DNA from: a virus
Lineage: Duplodnaviria; Caudoviricetes
DNA: 52,739 bases
Direction: 5' to 3' (one strand)
Virus record (IMG/VR): IMGVR_UViG_3300044512_003224
Span: 1-52,739 of that record
Positions 7,548-23,013 of this stretch are shown here, in pieces. A model generated the notes under the pieces. The model was not told where the DNA came from and did not search any database. It saw only the letters and a list, made by a program, of their open reading frames with translations. Made by a program: the position numbers and the translations under genes. Position 1 is the stretch's first letter. Every line of letters starts with the position of its first letter.

Positions 7548-10500
7548 ATGGCAAACGTAAAAATTACTGATTTAACCGAAATAGCGGCTGCAGATGTGGC
7601 CGCTACTGACGTTGTCCCTATTGTTGACGTTGACGTTGATGAAACCAAAAAAGTTTCACTCTCGAATACAGTTACAACAATAGCGTTTGCAAATGATTTT
7701 ACAACCTACACACAACTTAATGCAAATATAGATGTAGTGCAAGACAATGTCGCTACAGTTACTTCAACAGCTACTACTATCTCCTCAAATTTAACAGCCA
7801 ATTTAATTCAGATTGAAGCTAATGTCAATGTTGTACAAGATAATGTTGCGACTGTCACATCTACAGCTGAAACAATCTCTTCAAATCTTACAGCTAATCT
7901 AATTCAAATTGAGGCTAATGTTAACATTGTACAAGACAATGTCGCTACAGTCTCTACAAGTGTTGATACGCTTTCGACAAATCTGACTACTAATCTAGTT
8001 CAAATCTCAGCTAATTTAGACTCTCTACAAGATAATGTAAACTCTGTCTACTCTAATGTTACTACAGACTTTGCCACACTACTACTCTTAGATTCTGTGC
8101 AAGACAATGTCACTGCAGCTGAGGCAAATGTAAGCTCAGTAGAAGCGCGTAGAGACTCTAACACATTTTTCACATACAATGTAGATTCAAATGTTATTAT
8201 TAATGATGCCAATGTAGAACCTTCGAGCAATAATGAATTTTCCCTCGGTACAGAAGACGCTGTTTGGAAAGATCTTTATGTAGGACCAGGCACTATTTTT
8301 CTTGGCAATGTCAATATTAAGCCTAATGAAACAGGAACAGGTATTCTTGTAACTGGTGTTGATTCAAGCACCACAACTCTTGATACTCAAACTTCTAATG
8401 TTACAGCCTCACTTAATGATATACAAGACAATGTAGCCACCGTTTCTTCTAATCTTACAGCTAATTTAGTACAGATTGAAGCTAATGTCAATGTAGTACA
8501 AGACAATGTAGCCTCCGTTTCTTCTAATCTTACAGCTAATTTAGTACAGATAGAGGCTAATGTAAATGCTGTACAAGACAATGTTGCTAGCGTCTCTTCT
8601 AATCTTACAGCTAATTTAGTTCAGATCTCGGCGAATCTTGATGTAGTACAAGACAATGTAGCTGCTATTTTAGACGGCTCTTCACAGTTTACTGGACAAA
8701 TAACTATGCAAGATGACCTGATAGTTACAGGTAATTTAGCTGTAAATGGTGATACTACAGTTATTAGAACAATTAACTTAGATGTTGATGATAGAATTAT
8801 TATGCTTGCAAATACTGCAAGCGATGGAGCTCCGACAGCTGACGTAGGCATACTCTTTAATCGCGGAACAGAAGGTAATGCTGCATTATTCTATGATGAA
8901 TCTGCAGGCACCTTTAAACTTTCTGACACCGTAGACCCTTCTTCTAATATTCGTTTATCTCCTGTAAGCGCATCTAACCTTGATGTAGGCATTCTAACTT
9001 CACAAACTGTACGTTTTGATGGGACATCTGTGAACGATGCTATCACAGATAATGTTGCTCTTTTAGATACTCAAGCTAATGCTTTTTCTACCTATACTCA
9101 ACTTAACGCAAACATAAATGTAGTACAAGATAACGTTGCTAGCGTTTCTGCTAGAGTAAACACCGTTCAAGATAACGTTGCTAGCATCTCCTCTAACTTG
9201 ACAGCTAATTTAGTACAAATAGAAGCTAACGTAAATGTAGTACAAGATAACGTCTCTACAATCTCTTCTAACTTAACAGCTAATTTAGTACAGATAGAGG
9301 CTAATGTAAATGCGGTATCTTCTAATGTTGATGCTGTAGAGTCAAGACGAGCTGCTAACGTTACATTCACCATTGGAGCTGATACAGGATCAGATTTTGG
9401 AATTCTCTTAGGCAATACCGTAACTTTAGGCGGAAATGTAGGCATTTCTACTATTGTATCTGAAAATGCTTTAGACATTGATCTGGATATTAATAGCTTA
9501 ACTCATAATGCTAATTCAGTATCAACAGATTTTGTCGCTTATTATGATGTTGATAATGAAACTATAGTAAAATCTACAGTTGCAGAACTTGCACTTCAAG
9601 GAGTTCAAGGTATAACTGGCGCTCAAGGTACTGATGGCACAACAGGTGCTCAAGGTACTGATGGTACAACAGGCTCTCAAGGCACTACTGGCTCTCAAGG
9701 TACTGACGGTACAACAGGGTCACAAGGCGCTACTGGTGCTACAGGATCACAAGGTACTGACGGTACAACAGGGTCACAAGGCGCTACAGGTGCAACCGGC
9801 TCTCAAGGTACTGACGGTACAACAGGCTCTCAAGGCGCTACAGGCTCTCAAGGTACTGACGGTACAACAGGATCTCAAGGCGCTACAGGTGCTACTGGCT
9901 CTCAAGGTACTGATGGCGTAACAGGTTCACAAGGAGCCACAGGAACTCAAGGTACAACAGGCTCTCAAGGTACTGACGGTACAACAGGATCTCAAGGCGC
10001 TACAGGTGCTACTGGCTCTCAAGGTACTGATGGCGTAACAGGTTCACAAGGAGCAACAGGAACTCAAGGTACAACAGGTACACAAGGTACTGACGGAACT
10101 CAAGGTACTCAGGGTATCAGCTTTACTACTGGTGTTGGCGCAGGAGAGACAATTGTTTTTGAAGGCTCTACTGATGACGAGGCTGAGACTACTCTTACGG
10201 TAGCAGATCCTTCAGAAGATCGAACAATCACACTTCCTAACGCGACTGGTACAGTTATTACTAGCGGTAATCCAGAAGATTTTAGAGCAGGTATAGACTC
10301 ACTTGGAAACTTAGAACTATCTGCTAATACTATTGATATGGCAATTATCAATAATTTTGTTCCTGCCACACAAGAGGGTCGTATCCACTACGACACTGAT
10401 AGAAACTCTCTTATAGTTCAAGGGCCGACTGCTAACTCTAATCTTCATATAGGACAAGATCAGTTTATTTATGTTAAAAACGAATCTGGTGCAGATATTG

Positions 10501-13500
10501 ACAGGTTAAAGCCTGTATATCTTGATAGCGAAGCTTCAGGTGTGCCAACAATTTTATTAGCAAATGCTCAAGTAGAAGAAAAGTCGTATGTAGCAGGTTT
10601 AACTGCTGATTATATACCTAATAATGGTTTTGGATTTGTTCAGTGTGATGGTATTGTATTTGGTGATACAACAGGTCTTCTAGCAGGTGAGCGTGTTCAT
10701 CTTGGGCCGTCTGATGGGGCACTTCAGATAACAGCTCCTACGTTTCCGTATTTTGCTACTGACATTGGTATAGTTCTTATTGTAGACGGCAATAATGGAT
10801 GTATCTTCTTAGATATTATAGATCACTTTGCTGAAACATTTAGAGTAGTAGGTGAAGCGTATGTAGACGCTGACTTAACAGTTGGAGGTAACCTTTCAGT
10901 TTTAGGCACTGAGTCAATTACCTCTGTAAACTCGCTTGCAGTTTCAAACTCATTTATGTATCTAAACTCTGGTGATACAATTGGCGACTCTGGTACTACA
11001 TATATCGGTACAGGTCTTGATGATGGTACTTTAACAGGTCATTATACTGGTCCAATTACTGAAACATTCAATGTAATGATTAATACAACAGGTACCCCAG
11101 ATACTTTTGATTTTACTCTTGATAATTTTGCTACAAATGCATTAGTTGGTGTTTCTATAACAGGCGGTGATCAAACACTCGCAAACGGAATTTCAATTAA
11201 ATTTGAAGCTACTACAGGACATACAGCAGGAGATCAATGGAGTGGAGTTGCAGCCCCTTCTAATATAGATACAGGTTGGGTATCGAATCGTAACACAGGA
11301 CTTAGTGAGCCAGGCTATACTCATCTTGGTAGCTTTTTTGACGTTTCTGATTCAAAATTCAAATTTTTTAAAGAATATGATCCAGAACCTGAAGGTACAA
11401 TTAATACAGGGCATGCTTCTTTTGAGCTTGGTACAGTTGTTGCAACAACCTTTGAAGGTAATGCAACTAGTGCAGATGCTTTATCTACAGCTCGTGCAAT
11501 TGCACTGGCAGGAGACGTAACAGGTACTCAAAACTTTGATGGATCAGCAGGTATTTCAATTACCGCCTCTCTTGATGTAAATAATTTGACTACATCGACT
11601 GATACAGCTTCTGATGATTTTATTCCCTTTTATGATGTGACAGGTTCTGTAACACGTAAAGCAACTGTTGCTAATCTTGCTTTACAAGGTGTACAAGGTA
11701 CTGATGGTACAACAGGATCACAAGGTGCCACTGGAGCTACTGGCTCTCAAGGTACCGATGGTACTACAGGTTCTCAAGGCGCTACTGGAGCTACTGGCTC
11801 TCAAGGAACTGACGGTACAACAGGTTCTCAAGGCGCTACTGGAGCTACTGGCTCTCAAGGAACTGACGGTACTACTGGATCTCAAGGTGCTACTGGTGCT
11901 ACTGGCTCTCAAGGAACTGACGGTACTACAGGTTCTCAAGGTACTGACGGAACTACAGGTTCTCAAGGAACTGACGGTACAACAGGCTCTCAAGGTGCTA
12001 CTGGAGCTACTGGCCCTCAAGGTACTGACGGCACAACAGGATCTCAAGGTGCTACTGGAGCTACTGGCTCTCAAGGCACTACAGGATCTCAAGGTACAAC
12101 AGGAACTGCAGGAGACACAGGGTCTCAAGGTACAACAGGTAATACTGGAACTCAAGGCGCAACAGGGTCTCAAGGTACAACAGGTAATACTGGATCACAA
12201 GGAGCTACTGGATCAACAGGATCGCAAGGCACCACAGGGTCACAAGGAACTACTGGTAATACAGGCTCTCAAGGTGCTACTGGAGCTACTGGCTCTCAAG
12301 GCACGACTGGTACTGAAGGTGATTCAGGAACTCAAGGAATTGCCGGGGTCAGTGGAGAAGGTGGTGGAGTATTCGTTATTGAGGCTGAACGTAGCGGTAG
12401 TGTAACTTTAAATCAATTTTTTGCTATTGGTAACGGCGCTCAACCTACTAATGGTGTATATATAGCAGAAGATGTTCAATTAGAGCACCTTGCTATTGCT
12501 TCAGATTCTTCACAATCAGCAATAACAGTTGAACTTTTCATAAATGGGTCAGGATCTGGACAAACTGTTTCATTATCTAGCCAAGCTCAGAATATTACAT
12601 CAGGCATAGGTTTAGCTGTTAGTGCAGGTAGCCGAATAACTTTTAAATGTACTTCAGGTAGCGCTAACGCTACCACTGTTGTAGCTGCATGGTTTTTAAC
12701 AGGAGGTGCAAAAGGCGCACAGGGAACTACCGGCTCTCAAGGTACAACAGGTAATACAGGATCACAAGGAACAACAGGCACACAAGGCGTTGAAGGAAAC
12801 TTTGGTGGAGCTACTTTCCATTATAGTTTTGATACTGATACAGGTACTTCTGATCCAGGAAGCGGTGATCTAAAATTTAATAATTCTAATATTCAAAGTT
12901 CTACTGGAATGAGAATAGACGATCAAGACCAAAATGGTGATGATATACAATCATTCCTTCGCACAATTGATGATAGCACTAGTGCCATAAAAGGTCATTT
13001 TAGAGTCTCTAATAAAACTAATGCAGATGATTTTGCGCTATTTACTATTTCCTCTTTAACTGAAGAAACTGGTTACTTTTTAGTTCAATCTAATTACGTA
13101 TCTGGACCTACAAGCTCGTTTACTAACGGTGAAGAACTTATAATCACCTTTGCCCGAACTGGTGATAAGGGTGATACAGGTAACACAGGATCACAAGGAG
13201 CTACAGGTTCAACAGGTTCTCAAGGCGCAACGGGTGCTACTGGTTCTCAAGGCGCAACGGGTGCTACTGGTTCGCAGGGTACTACAGGAAATACTGGTTC
13301 TCAAGGTGCAACAGGAAATACTGGTTCTCAAGGTGCTACTGGTACACAAGGAGCTACAGGATCTACAGGTTCTCAAGGTGCAACTGGATCTACAGGATCA
13401 CAAGGCACAACTGGATCTCAAGGAGCTACAGGATCAACAGGATCTCAAGGCGCTACCGGCACTCAGGGTACAACAGGTAACACAGGTACTCAAGGAACAA

Positions 13501-14159
13501 CCGGTAATACTGGTTCTCAAGGAACAACAGGCACTCAAGGTGCTACAGGTAATACTGGCTCACAAGGTACGACTGGTAATACCGGGTCACAGGGAGCAAC
13601 AGGTGCTCAAGGTACAAGCTTTGATACAACTGGTGACAAAACACTTGTTGGTAATTTAACTCTTGAATCAACCGATAGTGGCAGTAGCGCTGCACCAACA
13701 CTAGGTTTGTATAGAAATAGCTCATCACCTGCTGGTCAGGACGACTTAGGAGTAATGGCTTTCCAAGGTGAAGATGCAAATGGTGATAAAATTGAGTATG
13801 CTGAAATTGGTGCTCAAATCTATAGCACAGGCCCTAGTAGTCCTCAAGGTATGTTAGGCTTTAGTGCTGTAAAAGCCGGTACTATGACAGAAATGATTAG
13901 AATATCTGGATTTCATGATACTCTGTTTTCAAACCAAGATGTAAAGCTTTTCACAAATGTAGATCTAATATTTACAGGACCTACAAATGATGGTAACCAA
14001 ACTACAATAACAACAGAAACTCAGACAGCTGCCCGCACTATAACTTTACCTGATGCAACAGGAACCGTCGCTCTTACCTCAGACTTACCTACCAATCAAG
14101 ACTATGGATTGGTAACTGGAGGAGTTGACGGATCTGAAGATTATGGAAGCGTTGCATGA
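7548..14159 (+). CDS. giant collagen-like/coiled-coil fibre protein (2203 aa)
   Basis: AAGGA RBS; N-terminal KITDLT fibre motif, Asn-rich coiled-coil repeats, four Gly-X-Y blocks, RTITLP[ND]ATGTV motifs, C-terminal DYG..DYGS. Confidence 0.9.
7700..9340 (+). repeat. eight copies of a 25-32-aa coiled-coil repeat in three blocks
   Basis: SNLTANL[VI]QIEANVN[VA]VQDNV; 75-nt period around 8425-8660; boundaries approximate. Confidence 0.85.
9597..10116 (+). repeat. collagen-like Gly-X-Y block 1
   Basis: [12 protein letters not shown] triplets; contains a 117-nt near-exact tandem duplication (9843 and 9960). Confidence 0.9.
11685..12350 (+). repeat. collagen-like Gly-X-Y block 2
   Basis: ([18 protein letters not shown])n, 54-nt period, then GNT variants. 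Confidence 0.9.
12704..13615 (+). repeat. collagen-like blocks 3 (~12704-12800) and 4 (~13161-13615)
   Basis: [15 protein letters not shown] triplets separated by a globular domain. Confidence 0.85.
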
Positions 14160-16295: not shown

Positions 16296-16932
16296 TCTTA
16301 GAGTCATAGTGTTAAATTACAAACGACAAGATAATGTTTTAAGAATTGTTAAAGCACTTCAGCCGTATTATCCAGTTACTGTAATCAATAATAACCCTAA
16401 AAAACGTTTTCCTCAGTTTGGTCAGCCTGTTGAAGTTATTAACAATGAGCAAAATTTTATGTGTATGGAACGTTGGATTCGTTGTTTTGAGTATAAGGAA
16501 GAATATAAGTTAATTTTAGATGATGATATGTTACCTTCACTTTCTCTCATTGAACGTATGAAGAACTTGAATGAACCGATTGTAGGAATATACGGTAAGT
16601 CAGGAGTTACACAATCCAAATCATATACAGAATTAGAAGATCACTGGTGCTTAGATAATTATGTAGACTTTTTAGTAGGTAGTGTTGTGTTAGTAAAACA
16701 GTCTGCTTTAGATTTAATACAGCCAGCCTTAGAAAAAATTGGATATCCTAAACGTGGAGATGATATAATTGTAAGTTACCTTTTAAAAAAGCAGTTTAAT
16801 CTTAATAAATTGCGCACTGTAAGCGGTAAAGTACTAATGTTACCTGAGGGTGACGTTGGATTAAATAAAGATCCCTCTCATTTTTCGATGCGTTGGAAAG
16901 TAATTGAAAAATTCAAAAATAGTTCTTGGTAA
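16288..16932 (+). CDS. GT-A glycosyltransferase (GT2/GT64-like)
   Basis: VIVLNYKR, VINNN, LILDDDM (DxD), RGDDI. Confidence 0.75.
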   Translation: MPNLRVIVLNYKRQDNVLRIVKALQPYYPVTVINNNPKKRFPQFGQPVEVINNEQNFMCMERWIRCFEYKEEYKLILDDDMLPSLSLIERMKNLNEPIVGIYGKSGVTQSKSYTELEDHWCLDNYVDFLVGSVVLVKQSALDLIQPALEKIGYPKRGDDIIVSYLLKKQFNLNKLRTVSGKVLMLPEGDVGLNKDPSHFSMRWKVIEKFKNSSW

Positions 16933-16952
16933 AAAGAGAAAATTATCATAAG

Positions 16953-17327
16953 ATGAATCAGTTAAAAAGATTGCCGATAAAATATATAAGAGATTTTATC
17001 AAAAAAGATTATAAACTACGTGATGAGTGTTTTATTTGTGGTTCTAAACAGCAACTAGAGCTGCACCACTTATTAAGTGTAAGTGAGCTGTTTAATAATT
17101 GGTGTACTAAAAATCGTATAATCGATTTTGACTTAGATCAGTTAAAAATACATCGTGTTAAATTTTCAGAAGACTGTGCAAACGAGCTATCTCATGAAAA
17201 TTTATTTACACTTTGCAGTTCTCATCATAAACAACTTCACAGTATTTATGGACAAACATATTCTAATCATCTAGCACCAAAAATTAAGAATTGGCTAGAG
17301 ATTCAAAGGGCAAAAAATGGCAGATGA
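16953..17327 (+). CDS. T5-type nicking HNH endonuclease
   Basis: KYIRD..K..Y, CFICG...LELHH, TLC..HH..LH..Y; between terL and portal as in T5; start re-called to ATG 16953. Confidence 0.8.
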   Translation: MNQLKRLPIKYIRDFIKKDYKLRDECFICGSKQQLELHHLLSVSELFNNWCTKNRIIDFDLDQLKIHRVKFSEDCANELSHENLFTLCSSHHKQLHSIYGQTYSNHLAPKIKNWLEIQRAKNGR

Positions 17328-18582
17328 CGAGTTAAGAGGTATCAGAAAATGGGTTGCAGATAGACTTAAGCTAAATCCTGCTCAACCTTCTATCGCTTCT
17401 TTAGAACCTTACGCTTCTCCTGAAACAATCGTTGACTTTGAACAAGCTTATCGTGAGATCGAGGTTGTTCATCGTTCTATTGATATGATTATTAATGCTT
17501 GTGTAGAAGTACCTTTAATTGTTGAAGGGCAAAGTCCTGCTAAAAAAGTTAACAAACTTTTAAATATCAAACCAAACCCTTTTGAAGATCGTGTTCGTTT
17601 ATTTAGACGAGCAATTTTAGATTTTATTCTAGATGGAAATGCATTTTTTTACTATGATGGTGCAGATTTATATTTATTACCTGCAAACGATGTTGAGGTA
17701 GTTCCTGATGAACGCACTTTTGTATCTCATTACAACTATTTAGTATCGAACCAAGGTGCACAAGACTTTTACGGTTTTGGTGGTGGTAAAAATACTCGTA
17801 AAGCTGAGGCGATTCAGTTTGCTCCAGAAGAAATTATTCATATTATGGCTGAAAATGAACTTTCAATATTTAGAGGAACTTCAAAGCTCAAGCCAATATT
17901 AAAACTTATGGAACTTTATCACTATATGATTAGATTTCAACGTCAATTCTTTAAAAATAATGCGCTTCCAGGGTTTGTTCTTACTACTGATAATATCTTA
18001 TCTCAACGAGTTAAACAGAGATTGTTAGAAGCATGGAAGTCTACCTATACTACTATATTTGACGGCGCAAGAAACCCTGCTATTTTAGATGGTGGACTAA
18101 AGATAGATTCATTTTCAACTGTAAATTTTGATCAACTTGATTTTGAAGACTCCATAGAGCGTATTCAACAAGATATGGCTAAAGCTTTAGGTGTGCCTTA
18201 TGTGCTATTAAAATCTGGAAATAACGCTAATATAGATGCTAATCAAAAATTATTTTATCTACACACAGTAATGCCTATGTTAACTCAGTTTTGTTCAGCT
18301 TTTGCACATTTCTTTAATAATGGTGTTACAGTACGTCCTGATAAACTTGCAATTCCTGCGCTTCAACCAGACAATAGAACGCAAGCAATTTATTATTCAA
18401 CTCTCGTAAACACAGGAATTATAACCCCAAATGAAGCTCGTGAGGGATTAAGATTTCCAAAATTAGATAATAATGATAACATAAGAGTACCACAGAATAT
18501 CACTGGTAGTGCGACTGACGCTACCCAAGGTGGAAGACCTCCTGGCGAGGAAACACTAAATGAGGAAGATAATAATGGATAA
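17317..18582 (+). CDS. portal protein (HK97/T5-type)
   Basis: LLNIKPNPF, DGNAF, FFKNNALPG, GIITPNEAR. Confidence 0.95.
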   Translation: MADDELRGIRKWVADRLKLNPAQPSIASLEPYASPETIVDFEQAYREIEVVHRSIDMIINACVEVPLIVEGQSPAKKVNKLLNIKPNPFEDRVRLFRRAILDFILDGNAFFYYDGADLYLLPANDVEVVPDERTFVSHYNYLVSNQGAQDFYGFGGGKNTRKAEAIQFAPEEIIHIMAENELSIFRGTSKLKPILKLMELYHYMIRFQRQFFKNNALPGFVLTTDNILSQRVKQRLLEAWKSTYTTIFDGARNPAILDGGLKIDSFSTVNFDQLDFEDSIERIQQDMAKALGVPYVLLKSGNNANIDANQKLFYLHTVMPMLTQFCSAFAHFFNNGVTVRPDKLAIPALQPDNRTQAIYYSTLVNTGIITPNEAREGLRFPKLDNNDNIRVPQNITGSATDATQGGRPPGEETLNEEDNNG

Positions 18583-21268
18583 AACATTATATTTAAATAG
18601 CTCCTTTGAAAGTAAAGCTTTTAAAAAAGGCTCTAAGTCTCTTAAAATTGCTGGATATGCTAATACTACAGTTAAAGATCGCGCTGGCGATGTTGTAACT
18701 GCAGAAGCTTGGGCTAAAGGCGTAGAAAACTTTAGACGTAATCCAGTTCTTTTATACCAACATAAGCATGACTGCCCTATTGGTAAAGTAGAAAAGATTC
18801 AAGTCGATAAAAAAGGTCTTTACGTAGAAGGAATGATCTCAGAAGCAGCAGAAAAAACACACGGTGTACAAACTCTTGTTAAAGATGGCGCGCTAAAAAG
18901 TTTTTCTGTAGGTTTTAGAGTAAAAGATGGAAAATATAATAGAGACGACGATTCTATGTTAATTACAGATGTTGAGCTACTTGAGATTTCAGTAGTATCA
19001 GTTCCGTGTAACCAAGATTCTCTATTTTCTATTCGTAAAAGTTTTGAATCTGATCAAGATTATAAAGAATTTGTAAAAACACTTGATGAAGTATCAAGCG
19101 ATGAATTAAAAATGATGCGTAGTATAAAGGCTGGAATCACCGATGTACAGAATGGACATTATCATACCGTTGAAATGGACGAAAATGGAAACGGAGTTAC
19201 TACATACGCATCTCATATGTCCAACCACGCACACAAAGTTGTAAGTGGTGTTGTACTAGAGGCTGAGGGTCATACTCATGCTATAACAATGATGGGTGTT
19301 CCAATTCATAATATGGAGAACGAGGAAGTTGTAAATGAACGTCCTTTATCTCCTTCAGAGGAGGATGCAATGTCTCAAGATAAGACGGATATTGTTGAAG
19401 AAACTAAAGACATCTCTGAAGTAACCGAAGATGCAGTAGAAACAACTGAAGAAGTTGCGAAAACTGTTGAAGAAGTAACTGATGAAAAGTCTGAAACTGA
19501 CTCAACAGAGCTTGAAACTAAAGCGACTGCCGAAGAGCATATTGATGATATAGAAAAAGATGATTTAGAGGATGAGTTAGAAATTCGTGATCCTAATGAG
19601 TCTATTCCTATGGTTAATTTGTTATCAGCAAGCCCAGAGGAACTTCAGCATGGTGATTTAGTTAATTACAACGAAAAAATGTTTAGGGTAACTAAAATAG
19701 CAACTGCCCAATCACCAATCTTTAAATTTTTAGAGGTTGACGCAGATGGTAAAGAAAGTGATAATGTTCTTAATGTGAATGCAGATGAACTTTCACAAGT
19801 CGATGCCAAAAATAATACTAAGAGTGAAGACGAAGTTTCTAACGCAAGTCTGACTAAAGAGCTTCACAATATTTCTGATAAGGAGAAAGACGAAATGGCT
19901 GATCAAGTCGTAGATACTATCGATCTAGAAACTGCTAAAAAAGAAGCAGCAATTGAGATCAAAAAAGATGCTACTCCGGTAGTAGAAGTGTCTGAGCCTC
20001 AAGTTGCAGAACTGGTTGAAAAAGCCGGTGAAGCTATTATAACAGAGTCAGACGCTAAAGAAAAATCTGATTACACTCCTCGCGAAAGCGAGCAGGTATC
20101 TGAGTTAAAATCTCAGATCGCAAAATACCAAGAAGAAGTTAATGCACTTCAGCGTTCTAAAATGCATTATCAAGAGTCCTCACGTAATCAACAGCAGTTC
20201 TCAGAGAAGGACCAAGCAAACGCAGTTATGCTTGCTAAAATGTTGAACAGACGTGATGTATTTGACACAAAGATTGGCCAGCGTATGAAAGCTGTTACAA
20301 CTGTGGATCAATTCTTGAGCAACTTCTCACAAAACATCTATACAGAGATGGAACAGCAACTTGTAGTTGCACCAATGTTTAATCGTGTAGCTGTGGATGC
20401 AAAAACATTCCGCGTACCAGTTGCCGATGAAGACACTGATGGTGATGTAGCACAGTTTGCATCAGGAACATTTGCAACAGGTATTGCAGATGCAAGTCGT
20501 GTACCAACAAGCAACCAAAACACCATCTCATCTGTAGACTTTACTCCACACAAGTTTATGGCAACAACTCACTTAGCAAAAGACGAAGAAGAAGACACAG
20601 TTCTTCCTTTACTCGACTTTTTACGTGCAGCAGCGACTCGTCGTTTAGCACGCGCTATTGATAAATCAATTCTACGTGGAACAGGTGCAGGAGCAGGCTT
20701 TACAGCATCACCTACAAATGCTATCTCAGCAGGTACAGGTTATGCTTCTGTTATCGAAGGTATTACAAACCTAACAACTGACGCTTCTCTCGAAGTATCA
20801 ACAGGTTCTGCCAACGATAAAGCTGATCCTTCTGATATCGCTTCAGCTCGTAGCACCCTAGGTAAATATGGTCTTCAGCTTGGTAACGATCTCGTATTCG
20901 TTACTTCAATTGAAGGTTATAACAACCTTGTAACAACATCAGACTTCCAGACTGTAGATAAGTTCGGTCCTAACGCAACATATCTAACTGGTTCAGTTGG
21001 TGCTGTATACGGTATTCCAATCGCTATCTCTGAGTTCTTAGATGGTGTTGGATCAACAGGTAACCACCTTGGTGTTCTACTTTACAAGCCAGGATTCATG
21101 ATCGCAGAAAGACGCGGTATTGAGATCGAGAGCGAGTACGAACCACGCCAGCAGGTCACTGCAATGTACATGTCAACACGTATTGACTTCAAAGCATTGA
21201 CTACAAACGCAAGTTCAGCATTGGATTCTTCAAAGTATTCATACGCTGTAACAGTTGCAGCTGGTTAA
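18575..21268 (+). CDS. fused prohead protease / acidic linker / HK97-fold major capsid protein
   Basis: IAGYAN, LLYQH..PIG, FSVGF, LLEISVVSVPCN (HK97 protease); C-terminal ~457-aa capsid (LARAIDKSILRGTG, GAVYGIPI); no internal stop; GAGG RBS favours ATG 18575. Confidence 0.92.
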   Translation: MDKTLYLNSSFESKAFKKGSKSLKIAGYANTTVKDRAGDVVTAEAWAKGVENFRRNPVLLYQHKHDCPIGKVEKIQVDKKGLYVEGMISEAAEKTHGVQTLVKDGALKSFSVGFRVKDGKYNRDDDSMLITDVELLEISVVSVPCNQDSLFSIRKSFESDQDYKEFVKTLDEVSSDELKMMRSIKAGITDVQNGHYHTVEMDENGNGVTTYASHMSNHAHKVVSGVVLEAEGHTHAITMMGVPIHNMENEEVVNERPLSPSEEDAMSQDKTDIVEETKDISEVTEDAVETTEEVAKTVEEVTDEKSETDSTELETKATAEEHIDDIEKDDLEDELEIRDPNESIPMVNLLSASPEELQHGDLVNYNEKMFRVTKIATAQSPIFKFLEVDADGKESDNVLNVNADELSQVDAKNNTKSEDEVSNASLTKELHNISDKEKDEMADQVVDTIDLETAKKEAAIEIKKDATPVVEVSEPQVAELVEKAGEAIITESDAKEKSDYTPRESEQVSELKSQIAKYQEEVNALQRSKMHYQESSRNQQQFSEKDQANAVMLAKMLNRRDVFDTKIGQRMKAVTTVDQFLSNFSQNIYTEMEQQLVVAPMFNRVAVDAKTFRVPVADEDTDGDVAQFASGTFATGIADASRVPTSNQNTISSVDFTPHKFMATTHLAKDEEEDTVLPLLDFLRAAATRRLARAIDKSILRGTGAGAGFTASPTNAISAGTGYASVIEGITNLTTDASLEVSTGSANDKADPSDIASARSTLGKYGLQLGNDLVFVTSIEGYNNLVTTSDFQTVDKFGPNATYLTGSVGAVYGIPIAISEFLDGVGSTGNHLGVLLYKPGFMIAERRGIEIESEYEPRQQVTAMYMSTRIDFKALTTNASSALDSSKYSYAVTVAAG
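19737..19765 (+). promoter_or_regulatory. intragenic promoter upstream of internal capsid start
   Basis: TTGACG-17 nt-GATAAT, 130 nt before in-frame AAGGAG-N9-ATG (19895). Confidence 0.6.
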
Positions 21269-21295
21269 TAGAAGATTTACATCTTTGGTTAACAC

Positions 21296-21324
21296 AGGGG
21301 GAGGCGGACAACGTCTCCCCTTTT
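21296..21324 (+). terminator. rho-independent terminator after capsid gene
   Basis: GGGGAGGCG-gacaa-CGTCTCCCC-TTTT. Confidence 0.8.
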
Positions 21325-21346
21325 ATCATTCAAAAGGAGAAATATA

Positions 21347-21649
21347 ATGGTAATGATTCCAGAATATATTAAAACAATAGATGAAGCTCGTGAGTACTTA
21401 TACCGACATGGTTACAGTGTTGATGTAGCAGCAGAAGAATTAAAAAATTGGGAAGCTCCAGCAGTTGTTGAAGAGACCGTCCCCGCCCCAGAGCCTGAAG
21501 TAGCTGAACCTACTCCAGCCCCAGCACCAGTTGCAGTTTCTATTCCTGAGCCTGTAGAAGAAGAGGAAGAGGAAGAGGAAGAGGAAGAGGAAGAAGATTG
21601 GGATGAAGAAGACGAAGACTGGGACGAAGAAGACGAAGACGAAGAGTAA
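21347..21649 (+). CDS. small protein with Pro/Glu linker and poly-acidic tail
   Basis: AAGGAG RBS; ends in a poly-E run followed by DWDEEDEDWDEEDEDEE. Confidence 0.75.
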   Translation: MVMIPEYIKTIDEAREYLYRHGYSVDVAAEELKNWEAPAVVEETVPAPEPEVAEPTPAPAPVAVSIPEPVEEEEEEEEEEEEEDWDEEDEDWDEEDEDEE

Positions 21650-21672
21650 TTTTAATTTAAGGCAGGTGTCTC

Positions 21673-23013
21673 ATGGTAGATAGATTACAAGAAAATTTAG
21701 GTAAATATCCGTATATAGATTTAGATCAAGTAAAAGATTATTTGTCTATTTCTAGTACTTCCGCTGATGCAAGGTTATCTAACATCATAAACTATGCAAC
21801 CGGTGTTGTAGAACACTACATAGGTCAAGAAATTTTGGCTAATGATTATGTTGAAGTTTTTGATGGCGGAAAGTCCTCTGTGTTAGTAAGTCGTTTACCT
21901 CTTTCTAATGTTTATTCTGTCTCAGAGTTTAATGGACAAGAAGAGCAAATTCTCGATGATCCTACAACTATTGGGACACCTGTTACAACTTCTACTGATG
22001 CATTAAGTCTCTCTTTTAAGGGAGATGCGCATCTTAATGGTAAGGTTAAAAAGTTTGGTAAATCATCATTAGAGCTGTTTTCAGACGGTGATTATGTCTT
22101 AGGTGCGCCTGTGACAGACCAACTAAAATTTGAAGAAGGTAATTTTACCATTGAGATGTTTATTCGCGTTGATCAAGCGACTTTGCAAGATAATGTGATA
22201 TTTTCAATTAACACAGACGCCTCAAATTATATGCAATTTCGTTTAGCGAATCAATATGGTTTAGAGTTTGAGGCAAATGTTGATGGAACTGCGATTTCTG
22301 CTAACGGACCTAATACACTTATAGAGTCTCAACAGTTTGCTAAAAGGCAGTGGGCACACGTTGCAGTGACACGAGATTTAGATAATGAAAAAATATATAT
22401 GCATTATAATGGAAATGTTATAGCTGACCAGTCTTATACTGTCGCTAATTTAACATTTACCACTAATGTTGAAATAGGAAGTACATTTAAAGGTTATTTA
22501 GACGAGGTGCGTGTATCCGATCAGGCAAGATACACAGGTTCAGATTTTTCAGTAAACACTAAGAGATTCAGGCCTGACAATGATACTGCGTTATTAATTC
22601 ATTTTGATGGCAAGAATGGCGCTACAGAAGCAAAAGACGTCCACAATGCTGTTAATGAATTTAACTTTTCCCGTGATATGGGAGAGATAACTCGTGATAC
22701 TGGAGGGGTAGGAGTTCGTGGAACATATCCTACAAGTAGAAACTCTTATCCTGCACTTACACTAGCAGGACCTCCTGCTTTTCAAGCATTTCCTTCTGGA
22801 GTCAAAGTAGACTATAGAGCTGGTTATGAATCTGATAGTGTTCCTCAAGATATTCAACTAGCTACTCTTGATTTTATAAAATTGATATACAAACAAGATC
22901 AAGAGAAAAAAGGATTTTCCTTTGAAGGTGAGCGAGGAGATAACTTCCCACTTGCTGGTAACTTCCCTCCACATATTAGACGTATTTTAGATCTTTACAG
23001 GATTATTGCTTAA
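21673..23013 (+). CDS. head-tail adaptor (head completion) with inserted LamG/ConA-like domain
   Basis: VKDYLSI...DARL..II..A...VEHY and KVDYRAGY..VPQDIQLA...FPPHIRRILDLYR flank FTIEMFIR, WAHVAVTR, GYLDEVRVS. Confidence 0.85.
   Translation: MVDRLQENLGKYPYIDLDQVKDYLSISSTSADARLSNIINYATGVVEHYIGQEILANDYVEVFDGGKSSVLVSRLPLSNVYSVSEFNGQEEQILDDPTTIGTPVTTSTDALSLSFKGDAHLNGKVKKFGKSSLELFSDGDYVLGAPVTDQLKFEEGNFTIEMFIRVDQATLQDNVIFSINTDASNYMQFRLANQYGLEFEANVDGTAISANGPNTLIESQQFAKRQWAHVAVTRDLDNEKIYMHYNGNVIADQSYTVANLTFTTNVEIGSTFKGYLDEVRVSDQARYTGSDFSVNTKRFRPDNDTALLIHFDGKNGATEAKDVHNAVNEFNFSRDMGEITRDTGGVGVRGTYPTSRNSYPALTLAGPPAFQAFPSGVKVDYRAGYESDSVPQDIQLATLDFIKLIYKQDQEKKGFSFEGERGDNFPLAGNFPPHIRRILDLYRIIA

Follow-up and report, generated by a model that had tools for sequence, protein, structure and literature searches.

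We have analysed a gene in which a prohead protease and a major capsid protein (MCP) share one reading frame, and in which a separate start of the capsid precursor at position 19895 is supported by conservation and a promoter inside the coding sequence is probable. It lies on IMG/VR virus record IMGVR_UViG_3300044512_003224, a linear record of 52.7 kb (52,739 nucleotides, nt; the whole stretch is called the window here) with an estimated completeness of 45% and a G+C content of ~37%. The source is an uncultured marine phage whose closest named relatives are T5-like, and no DNA near-identical to the window has been found in the phage collection. All features below are on the plus strand unless stated otherwise. 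In the list of open reading frames (ORFs) the frame extends over 18560..21268 and encodes 902 amino acids (aa), while starting from ATG 18575 gives 897 aa (18575..21268, product 1). Position 18575 is Met in 66/66 relatives covering it, but position 18560 is Met in only 11, and a Shine-Dalgarno (SD) sequence, GAGGA at 18562..18566, stands 8 nt before ATG 18575. Directly 5' is the portal gene (17317..18582; Pfam Phage_portal, E value 2.7e-50), whose last codons overlap the start of the fusion gene.

The long product begins with a prohead serine protease domain at 18635..19033 (Peptidase_S78, PF04586, residues 21-153; E value 1.5e-20, 74.4 bits against a cutoff of 21), which is 46-48% identical to the protease of Vibrio T5-like phages. 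Residues H63 and S111, by analogy with HK97 gp4 the putative catalytic pair, are nearly invariant in alignment A2, and none of the solved protease structures matched this part of the fused protein by sequence. The protease is separated from the capsid precursor by a variable stretch, a His-rich segment, an acidic linker and a small conserved domain. The His-rich segment (19154..19279; GHYHT...SHMxNHAHK...GHTH) belongs to the longest product only. It has seven invariant His in ~40 residues (H40, H42, H59, H63, H65, H78 and H80 of alignment A5, 30 sequences) and looks like a metal-binding stretch added on to the protease; some distant relatives have it and others do not, and its sole PHROG match is weak ('protease', E value 0.011). 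The acidic linker (19370..19594) is highly variable, with a pairwise amino-acid diversity of 0.37-0.55 and no family match, and is probably disordered in the AlphaFold2 (AF2) model, where the predicted local distance difference test score (pLDDT) is <50. The small domain (19595..19774), to which no family is assigned, shows an amino-acid diversity of 0.2-0.29 and short beta strands at pLDDT ~70; it is kept in distant relatives (PIPFxNLLS...EVD), and its 3' part overlaps the promoter-like site described below. In most of the distant relatives an extra conserved segment of ~100 residues (NxWD...LNxxxNL...WxDxHY, A2 columns ~455-580) stands between the small domain and the junction. As this segment is missing in the window's clade, the linker is modular. 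Pfam has no match for 19100-19894, Atlas no usable one, and PHROGs only the weak one mentioned; a fold prediction of middle residues 156-445 with 30 aligned sequences gave no confident fold (mean pLDDT 52, predicted template modelling score 0.20), and the middle 265 residues are without a match in any record of the phage collection.

The capsid part consists of a delta-like (scaffolding) N-terminal domain of the MCP precursor at 19895..20269, with an approximate boundary and only weak family matches of coiled-coil type, and of the HK97-fold MCP core at 20270..21265. The core matches Phage_capsid (PF05065, residues 583-879; E value 2.7e-14, 53.7 bits against a cutoff of 24.2), and the capsid part matches PDB entries 8ho3, 8zvi and 5tjt at E values of 1.8e-26 to 2.2e-25. 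Residues 505-876 align to residues 85-446 of the 458-aa T5-like MCPs (8ho3, 8zvi), and residue 576 aligns to residue 11 of the 299-residue major capsid protein chain 5tjt, so that ~125 residues separate M441 from the point of alignment with the first residues of that chain. By these alignments a complete T5-type capsid precursor is colinear with the C-terminal 457 residues. An earlier reading made from the window's sequence alone (the sequence-only reading) had likened a 457-aa product to the T5 capsid precursor by its size, and the likeness thus extends to colinearity with the 458-aa T5-like MCPs.

Fusion of protease and capsid among relatives

We have compared ~240 related loci in total. For the close set, 434/437 candidate stretches from IMG/VR encode a relative, and the best 80 were kept, which gives 81 sequences with the window. 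A second, more distant set holds 80 loci that are 44-63% identical to a distant relative. Fifteen representatives form a second clade with proteins of ~1000 aa and an extra segment of ~100 residues before the protease-capsid junction. Finally, a dereplicated set mixes close and distant clades at ~45-89% identity, in which 32 sequences cover the junction and a 33rd is truncated.

The sequence-only reading had stated that no stop separates protease and capsid, and had named a sequencing error as something to be checked for. In the window ORF there is indeed no stop between the Peptidase_S78 and Phage_capsid matches, and no relative shows one before 19895. From the protease end to the capsid N-terminus the junction lies in one open frame in 72/81 sequences, the other 9 being cut by contig ends, and each of the best 80 IMG/VR relatives has a single stop-free frame over the matched part. 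Both Pfam domains occur in all of the best 120 of 935 database matches (890-922 aa), and every complete locus of the distant set is fused (849-1037 aa). The separate protease and capsid genes of the nearest named phages might raise the suspicion that the fusion stems from an error of assembly or sequencing, or that a stop was lost recently, as in a pseudogene. Nevertheless, independent contigs from many samples share the open frame, both at 70-89% identity and in clades farther off; these relatives refute this reading, whose probability is practically nil.

The nearest named phages are T5-like phages of Vibrio, Klebsiella and Serratia, with ~32% identity over two pieces. T5-like phages have the same order of portal, protease and MCP as the window, and their precursor is ~460 aa long. 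In Wyman (T5-like, Demerecviridae), the protease gp22 (201 aa) and the MCP precursor gp23 (465 aa) are separate genes 7 nt apart, whereas they are fused in the window, which does not show the Demerecviridae trait of separate protease and MCP genes; the window's 457-aa product is colinear with Wyman's separate 465-aa precursor gene. Fusions of this kind are widespread. Among the best 150 representatives at 50% clustering, 18 have at least 780 aa and 101 have 540-779 aa, that is, 119 reach at least 540 aa, and the typical match comprises two stretches, protease and capsid.

Candidate internal starts and the promoter-like site

Two internal ATG codons, at 19370 and 19895, lie in the frame of 18575 and lead to the same stop (21266-21268). 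The sequence-only reading had reported both with their SD sequences, together with a promoter-like site at 19737, and we have found all three motifs in place. Under a strict definition (AGGAG, GGAGG or GAGGA at -17..-4 of an internal in-frame ATG), these two are the only such sites in the window's 18 long ORFs, which comprise 11,859 codons. Conserved start triplets number 38 over all frames, and an SD is conserved with only two of them, those at 19370 and 19895.

At 19880..19897, AAGGAG (19880-19885) and a 9-nt spacer precede ATG 19895, the putative start of product 3 (457 aa, coding 19895-21265), which reads MADQV. This ATG is Met in 81/81 sequences. The codon pair AAG GAG before the spacer is likewise found in 81/81, though AAA (3332) is more frequent overall than AAG (1563), and GAA (5118) than GAG (2307). 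The residues between SD and ATG vary (KDE, NDN, NEP, NET) and one-codon deletions occur as well. In the dereplicated set, [A/G]AGGAGAA-N6-ATG is present in 32/32 representatives, down to ~45% identity, and where Lys has changed to Glu before the start, AGGAG is nonetheless retained. A separate start of the capsid precursor at 19895 is supported by this pattern of conservation.

The candidate start of product 2 (632 aa, reading MSQDK) is ATG 19370, which GAGGAGG (19358-19364) precedes at a distance of 5 nt (19358..19372). It is ATG in 74/77 sequences and ATT or ATC in the other three, two of which also lose a GAG. Of the two GAG codons before it, one is kept in 75/77 and the other in 76/77, whereas GAA is used almost throughout for the following Glu and in the linker. 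The second clade has AGAGGAGAA-N4-5-ATG at the homologous place in 14/15 representatives, with different residues. Before ATG 19370, the constraint is confined to the last four codons, and no conserved promoter-like block has been found there.

A sigma-70-type promoter-like site, TTGACG-17-GATAAT, lies inside the coding sequence before ATG 19895 (19737..19765; hexamers at 19737-19742 and 19760-19765), with a predicted transcript start near 19772. TTGACN-17-[GA]ATAAT occurs in 80/80 relatives covering the site, and an extended -10, TGTGATAAT, in 78/80, the window and its nearest relative having AGT instead. In the nucleotide alignment the site reads TTTTTAGAG-R-TTGAC, a variable 17-nt spacer, and (T)GTGATAATGTT, with invariant hexamers. 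In none of the close representatives does another sigma-70-like site of the gene score higher; in these it stands 120-129 nt 5' of the ATG, with distances of 120-132 nt in a further count. In addition, intergenic TTGACA-17-TATACT and TTGACA-17-AACAAT at 1111 and 47384 suggest that the phage uses such promoters.

We have calculated pairwise synonymous diversity in the close set for 41 representatives that share <97% nucleotide identity; their identity to the window is 71-87%. In 60-codon windows the mean is 0.392 with a standard deviation of 0.081, and the value falls to 0.138, essentially the gene minimum, in the window starting at 19730, although the measure is biased downward in variable regions, where identical residues stem from closer relatives. 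The drop spans 19730-19909, and all 40 of the lowest 7-codon windows lie within 19715-20005. Since amino-acid diversity in the constrained stretch is 0.2-0.47, neither protein conservation nor recent homogenisation should account for this constraint. Actually, in the equally variable acidic linker, synonymous diversity falls only to 0.26-0.38. In the second clade this diversity has two separate troughs, of 0.15 at the promoter motif and of 0.07-0.10 at the SD-ATG, and it stands at 0.45-0.48 in between, which indicates that the promoter motif is constrained apart from the start site. The sequence-only reading had proposed synonymous sites of relatives as a check on this SD and promoter, and there both are under selection. 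Overall, a promoter inside the coding sequence is probable from these comparisons. We have also considered an overlapping gene in another frame and rejected it: no other frame is open across the constrained stretch, and over the 39 relatives compared the longest run free of stops falls to a minimum of 12-31 aa.

Downstream of the promoter-like site and before the ATG, the conserved blocks GTGAA and TTCAC make up two inverted pairs (window 19774-19797 and 19824-19866). They could be RNA stems or a protein-binding site. Their hairpins are 96% paired but invariant, and a shuffle control was identical. The leader 19772-19912 folds at -21.8 kcal/mol against -24.35 +/- 3.3 kcal/mol in shuffles (z 0.77), and in the leader alignment fold none of the 12 pairs covaries. 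The tests of RNA structure in the leader are evidence neither way.

Codon usage changes at 19895. Among the codons for Asn, Asp, His, Tyr, Phe and Ile, the share ending in C is 0.22, 0.30 and 0.24 in three segments upstream, and rises to 0.46 in the delta-like domain and 0.55 in the core (28/114 upstream versus 57/108 downstream, Fisher p 1.7e-5); in the window's other genes it ranges from 0.08 to 0.44. In the relatives the mean share is 0.34 upstream and 0.53 downstream, and the downstream value is the higher one in 37/38. As the codon bias of 19370-19894 is as low as that of the protease part, a product from 19370 should not be abundant, and the start at 19370 is probably used at a low level. 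The three nested products of the sequence-only reading thus fare unequally: conservation and codon bias support the start at 19895, while the start at 19370 is less strictly kept and its product is expected to be scarce. Its idea of the acidic linker as a scaffold has gained no support from the family searches or the fold prediction. At the other end of the gene, 28 nt 3' of the stop, a GC-rich hairpin with a T-rich tail resembles an intrinsic terminator (21296..21322). Of the representatives with downstream sequence, 31/35 have such a hairpin, at -15.7 to -20.8 kcal/mol and followed by a T-rich tail (missing in L002, L003, L067 and L074). Promoter, start, stop and hairpin would together define a capsid transcript of ~1.55 kb.

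Proposed nested expression and its alternatives

From these patterns we consider it likely that the locus holds nested genes, in which an MCP precursor of 457 aa has a promoter and a start to itself, and rare long forms carry the protease into the prohead. Most of the capsid precursor (delta-like domain and HK97 fold) would be initiated at its own ribosome-binding site before ATG 19895. Much of it would come from a short transcript that starts near 19772 and ends at the hairpin 21296-21322, and on which no upstream ribosomes would cross the 19895 start site. The 897-aa form would be a minority species that co-assembles via its capsid part. The N-terminus of the delta domain in HK97-type shells points inward, and hence an N-terminal protease would sit inside the prohead, where it would cut off the delta domains, the linker and itself. 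A further product starting at ATG 19370 (632 aa) is probable, though less conserved and presumably not abundant.

It may be argued that 19895 is used on a long late mRNA with no internal promoter, and that the TTGAC...GATAAT block and the stretch to the ATG are an element of RNA processing or stability, a ribosome standby site or a protein-binding site. Several observations speak for this or weigh against the nested reading with its short transcript. In the window alone, 16500-22500 contains 25 promoter-like sites against 20.4 +/- 5.0 in shuffles, that is, the site is no better than chance in one sequence; it matches the sigma-70 consensus at 10/12 positions, though the host's promoters may be of another type, and the window itself does not have the extended -10 TG of 78/80 relatives. 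A scan did not find the motif at the homologous place in ~8/18 distant representatives with enough upstream sequence (L124, L126, L129, L139, L143, L145, L148 and L149), which retain the SD-ATG. In the second clade the motif is ~420 nt before the ATG, implying a long leader. Furthermore, the site encodes conserved residues (EVD...DN), so that conservation of the motif is partly at protein level, the GTGAA/TTCAC blocks between site and ATG are conserved too, and no promoter-like site was found in the protease gene of Vibrio phage Wyman. Nor do the RNA data help the short transcript. There are 11 RNA runs, available as assembled contigs only, of which ten hold at most 0.17 of the words and one, unlabelled, 0.28; four runs compared at 80% likeness gave 17-37 pieces per run, mostly <90% alike and without molecule starts or ends. 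In X1, X4 and X5, though not in X8, the summed depth of the contigs increases 3' of ~19700; such depth is unfit to rank gene parts, the capsid half is also the more conserved one, and we have not used it as evidence. Against these points, the relatives show the classic pattern of a promoter, with two invariant hexamers 17 nt apart, a variable spacer and TGn before the -10 in 78/80. Besides, the site is the top sigma-70-like one of the whole gene in each close representative and has a synonymous dip of its own, apart from the start site. Covariation is missing from the candidate RNA hairpins and shuffled leaders fold no less stably, while a terminator-like hairpin closes the short unit. We therefore regard translation from a long mRNA with no internal promoter as unlikely, though it deserves to be kept in mind.

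A more radical alternative is that only the full-length polyprotein is made, with a protease on every capsid subunit, and that the SD-like sequences are pause sites at domain borders or relics of separate genes. The frame is open in every relative, as this would demand, and the protease-capsid fusions of actinophages are annotated as single proteins in PMC5513430. We have also sampled the wider class of fusions with 600-690 aa, where strict SD+ATG sites occur in the linker of just 20/67 complete genes; by that strict measure the nested-start device is recurrent but not general, a further point against the nested reading. However, the linkers of this class hold 23 strict sites in frame and 0 out of frame; the protease core has none and the capsid part 4. 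A pause needs no ATG, yet the ATG is invariant (81/81 and 32/32) at a fixed distance from AGGAG, and relics would not remain fixed at synonymous sites across ~45% protein identity. Nor would one expect a sharp difference of codon bias between two halves of one ORF. A product of full length only is thus highly improbable in our view.

The nested reading with its own capsid promoter may be extended to a dosing in three tiers, with the bulk shell subunit coming from the internal promoter, a rare protease carrier, and a middle isoform whose acidic tail and small domain would be a head cargo, loaded by its tether to the shell protein, retained once cut free, and entering the host with the DNA. T4 internal proteins offer an analogy for cargo that is retained in the head and enters the host with the DNA. 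We hold this extension to be very doubtful; if it were true, fusion to the shell protein would be a general route of capsid targeting in phages with the scaffold inside the shell protein.

Known systems and neighbouring genes

Genes with comparable logic are well known. In lambda C/Nu3 and Mu I/Z, the protease is the N-terminal part of a longer protein, whose C-terminal part is produced separately as well, in frame, by initiation within the gene. There, as in the herpesvirus genes below, the fusion brings the protease into the procapsid and the short form provides the bulk. A tripartite gene of Gifsy-2, said to have been described in 2010 (Virology 402:355), reportedly holds a protease, a central part and an MCP in one frame, with a ClpP-like protease and a lambdoid T=7 head. 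To our knowledge, no internal start or promoter has been reported for this fusion. The window would differ from this by its Peptidase_S78 and its T5-like MCP.

In the herpesvirus UL26/UL26.5 genes and their counterpart in Ostreid herpesvirus 1, a protease is fused to the scaffold and the nested scaffold transcript is ~tenfold more abundant, according to PMC11565193, in which the fusion is argued to ensure co-incorporation. Like lambda C/Nu3 and UL26/UL26.5, the window's short product has the same frame and C-terminus as the long product that bears the protease. Unlike them, where the nested product is a separate scaffolding protein, the nested product of the window would be the MCP precursor itself with a delta-like scaffold domain. 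The window further differs by a third candidate start in frame and by the ~265 residues that linker and small domains take up in between.

As to the phage fusions, 'major capsid and protease fusion' genes, called unusual, occur in Arthrobacter clusters AM, AU and AN and in Rhodococcus RRH1 (PMC5513430), and a protease-capsid fusion is mentioned for Giantsbane (bioRxiv 10.1101/2020.01.10.891226). These actinobacteriophage fusions are one protease and capsid gene, as in the window, but belong to other lineages and hosts and, in the portions of these sources consulted, are described as single proteins without nested products. In a full-text literature search we have come upon no work in which the capsid part of a protease-capsid fusion is shown or proposed to have an internal start or promoter; two papers, Liu and Mushegian 2004 and Effantin et al. 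2010, may bear on the matter. Protease-MCP fusions and nested protease/scaffold genes are already known, while a nested MCP with its own promoter in the coding sequence was not found in print by this search. We have considered that the promoter was inherited from T5-like phages and rejected it, as the site is absent in Wyman, one phage only; since Wyman has separate genes and no such site, the promoter-like site is apparently not ancestral, again with the reservation that this is one phage.

If fusions are single proteins, as annotated, each shell subunit comes with a protease of its own. This puzzle of protease and shell stoichiometry vanishes if an internal start yields the capsid protein by itself as well. 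The fusion would then be a delivery device, which extends the logic of lambda C/Nu3 and UL26/UL26.5 to phages with the scaffold within the shell protein. Annotation pipelines would overlook the main capsid product, and work on proteomics and structure would need the correct precursor. The locus would also be a case of a promoter and a start maintained within coding sequence, visible as a sharp loss of synonymous variation.

Right after the putative capsid terminator, an ORF of 100 aa (21347-21649) has a strong SD (AAAGGAGAAA) and ends in ~30 Glu/Asp with two Trp; it has no Pfam match and might be a head accessory or decoration protein. It is followed at 21673-23013 by a head-tail connector or head completion protein, with Phage_connect_1 in its N-terminal part and HCP in its C-terminal part, into the middle of which a Laminin_G_3 / concanavalin-like lectin domain is inserted (residues 149-286). 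On the other side, between the terminase-side genes and the portal gene, an ORF of 133 aa (16926-17327) has Cys-x2-Cys and HH motifs and is HNH endonuclease-like by a reading of its translation. Farther away, a 20-base stretch beginning TTGACATTAGC occurs twice on the minus strand, at 7828 and 8491 (663 nt apart), inside the 2203-aa ORF 7548-14159, which suggests an internal repeat in that ORF.

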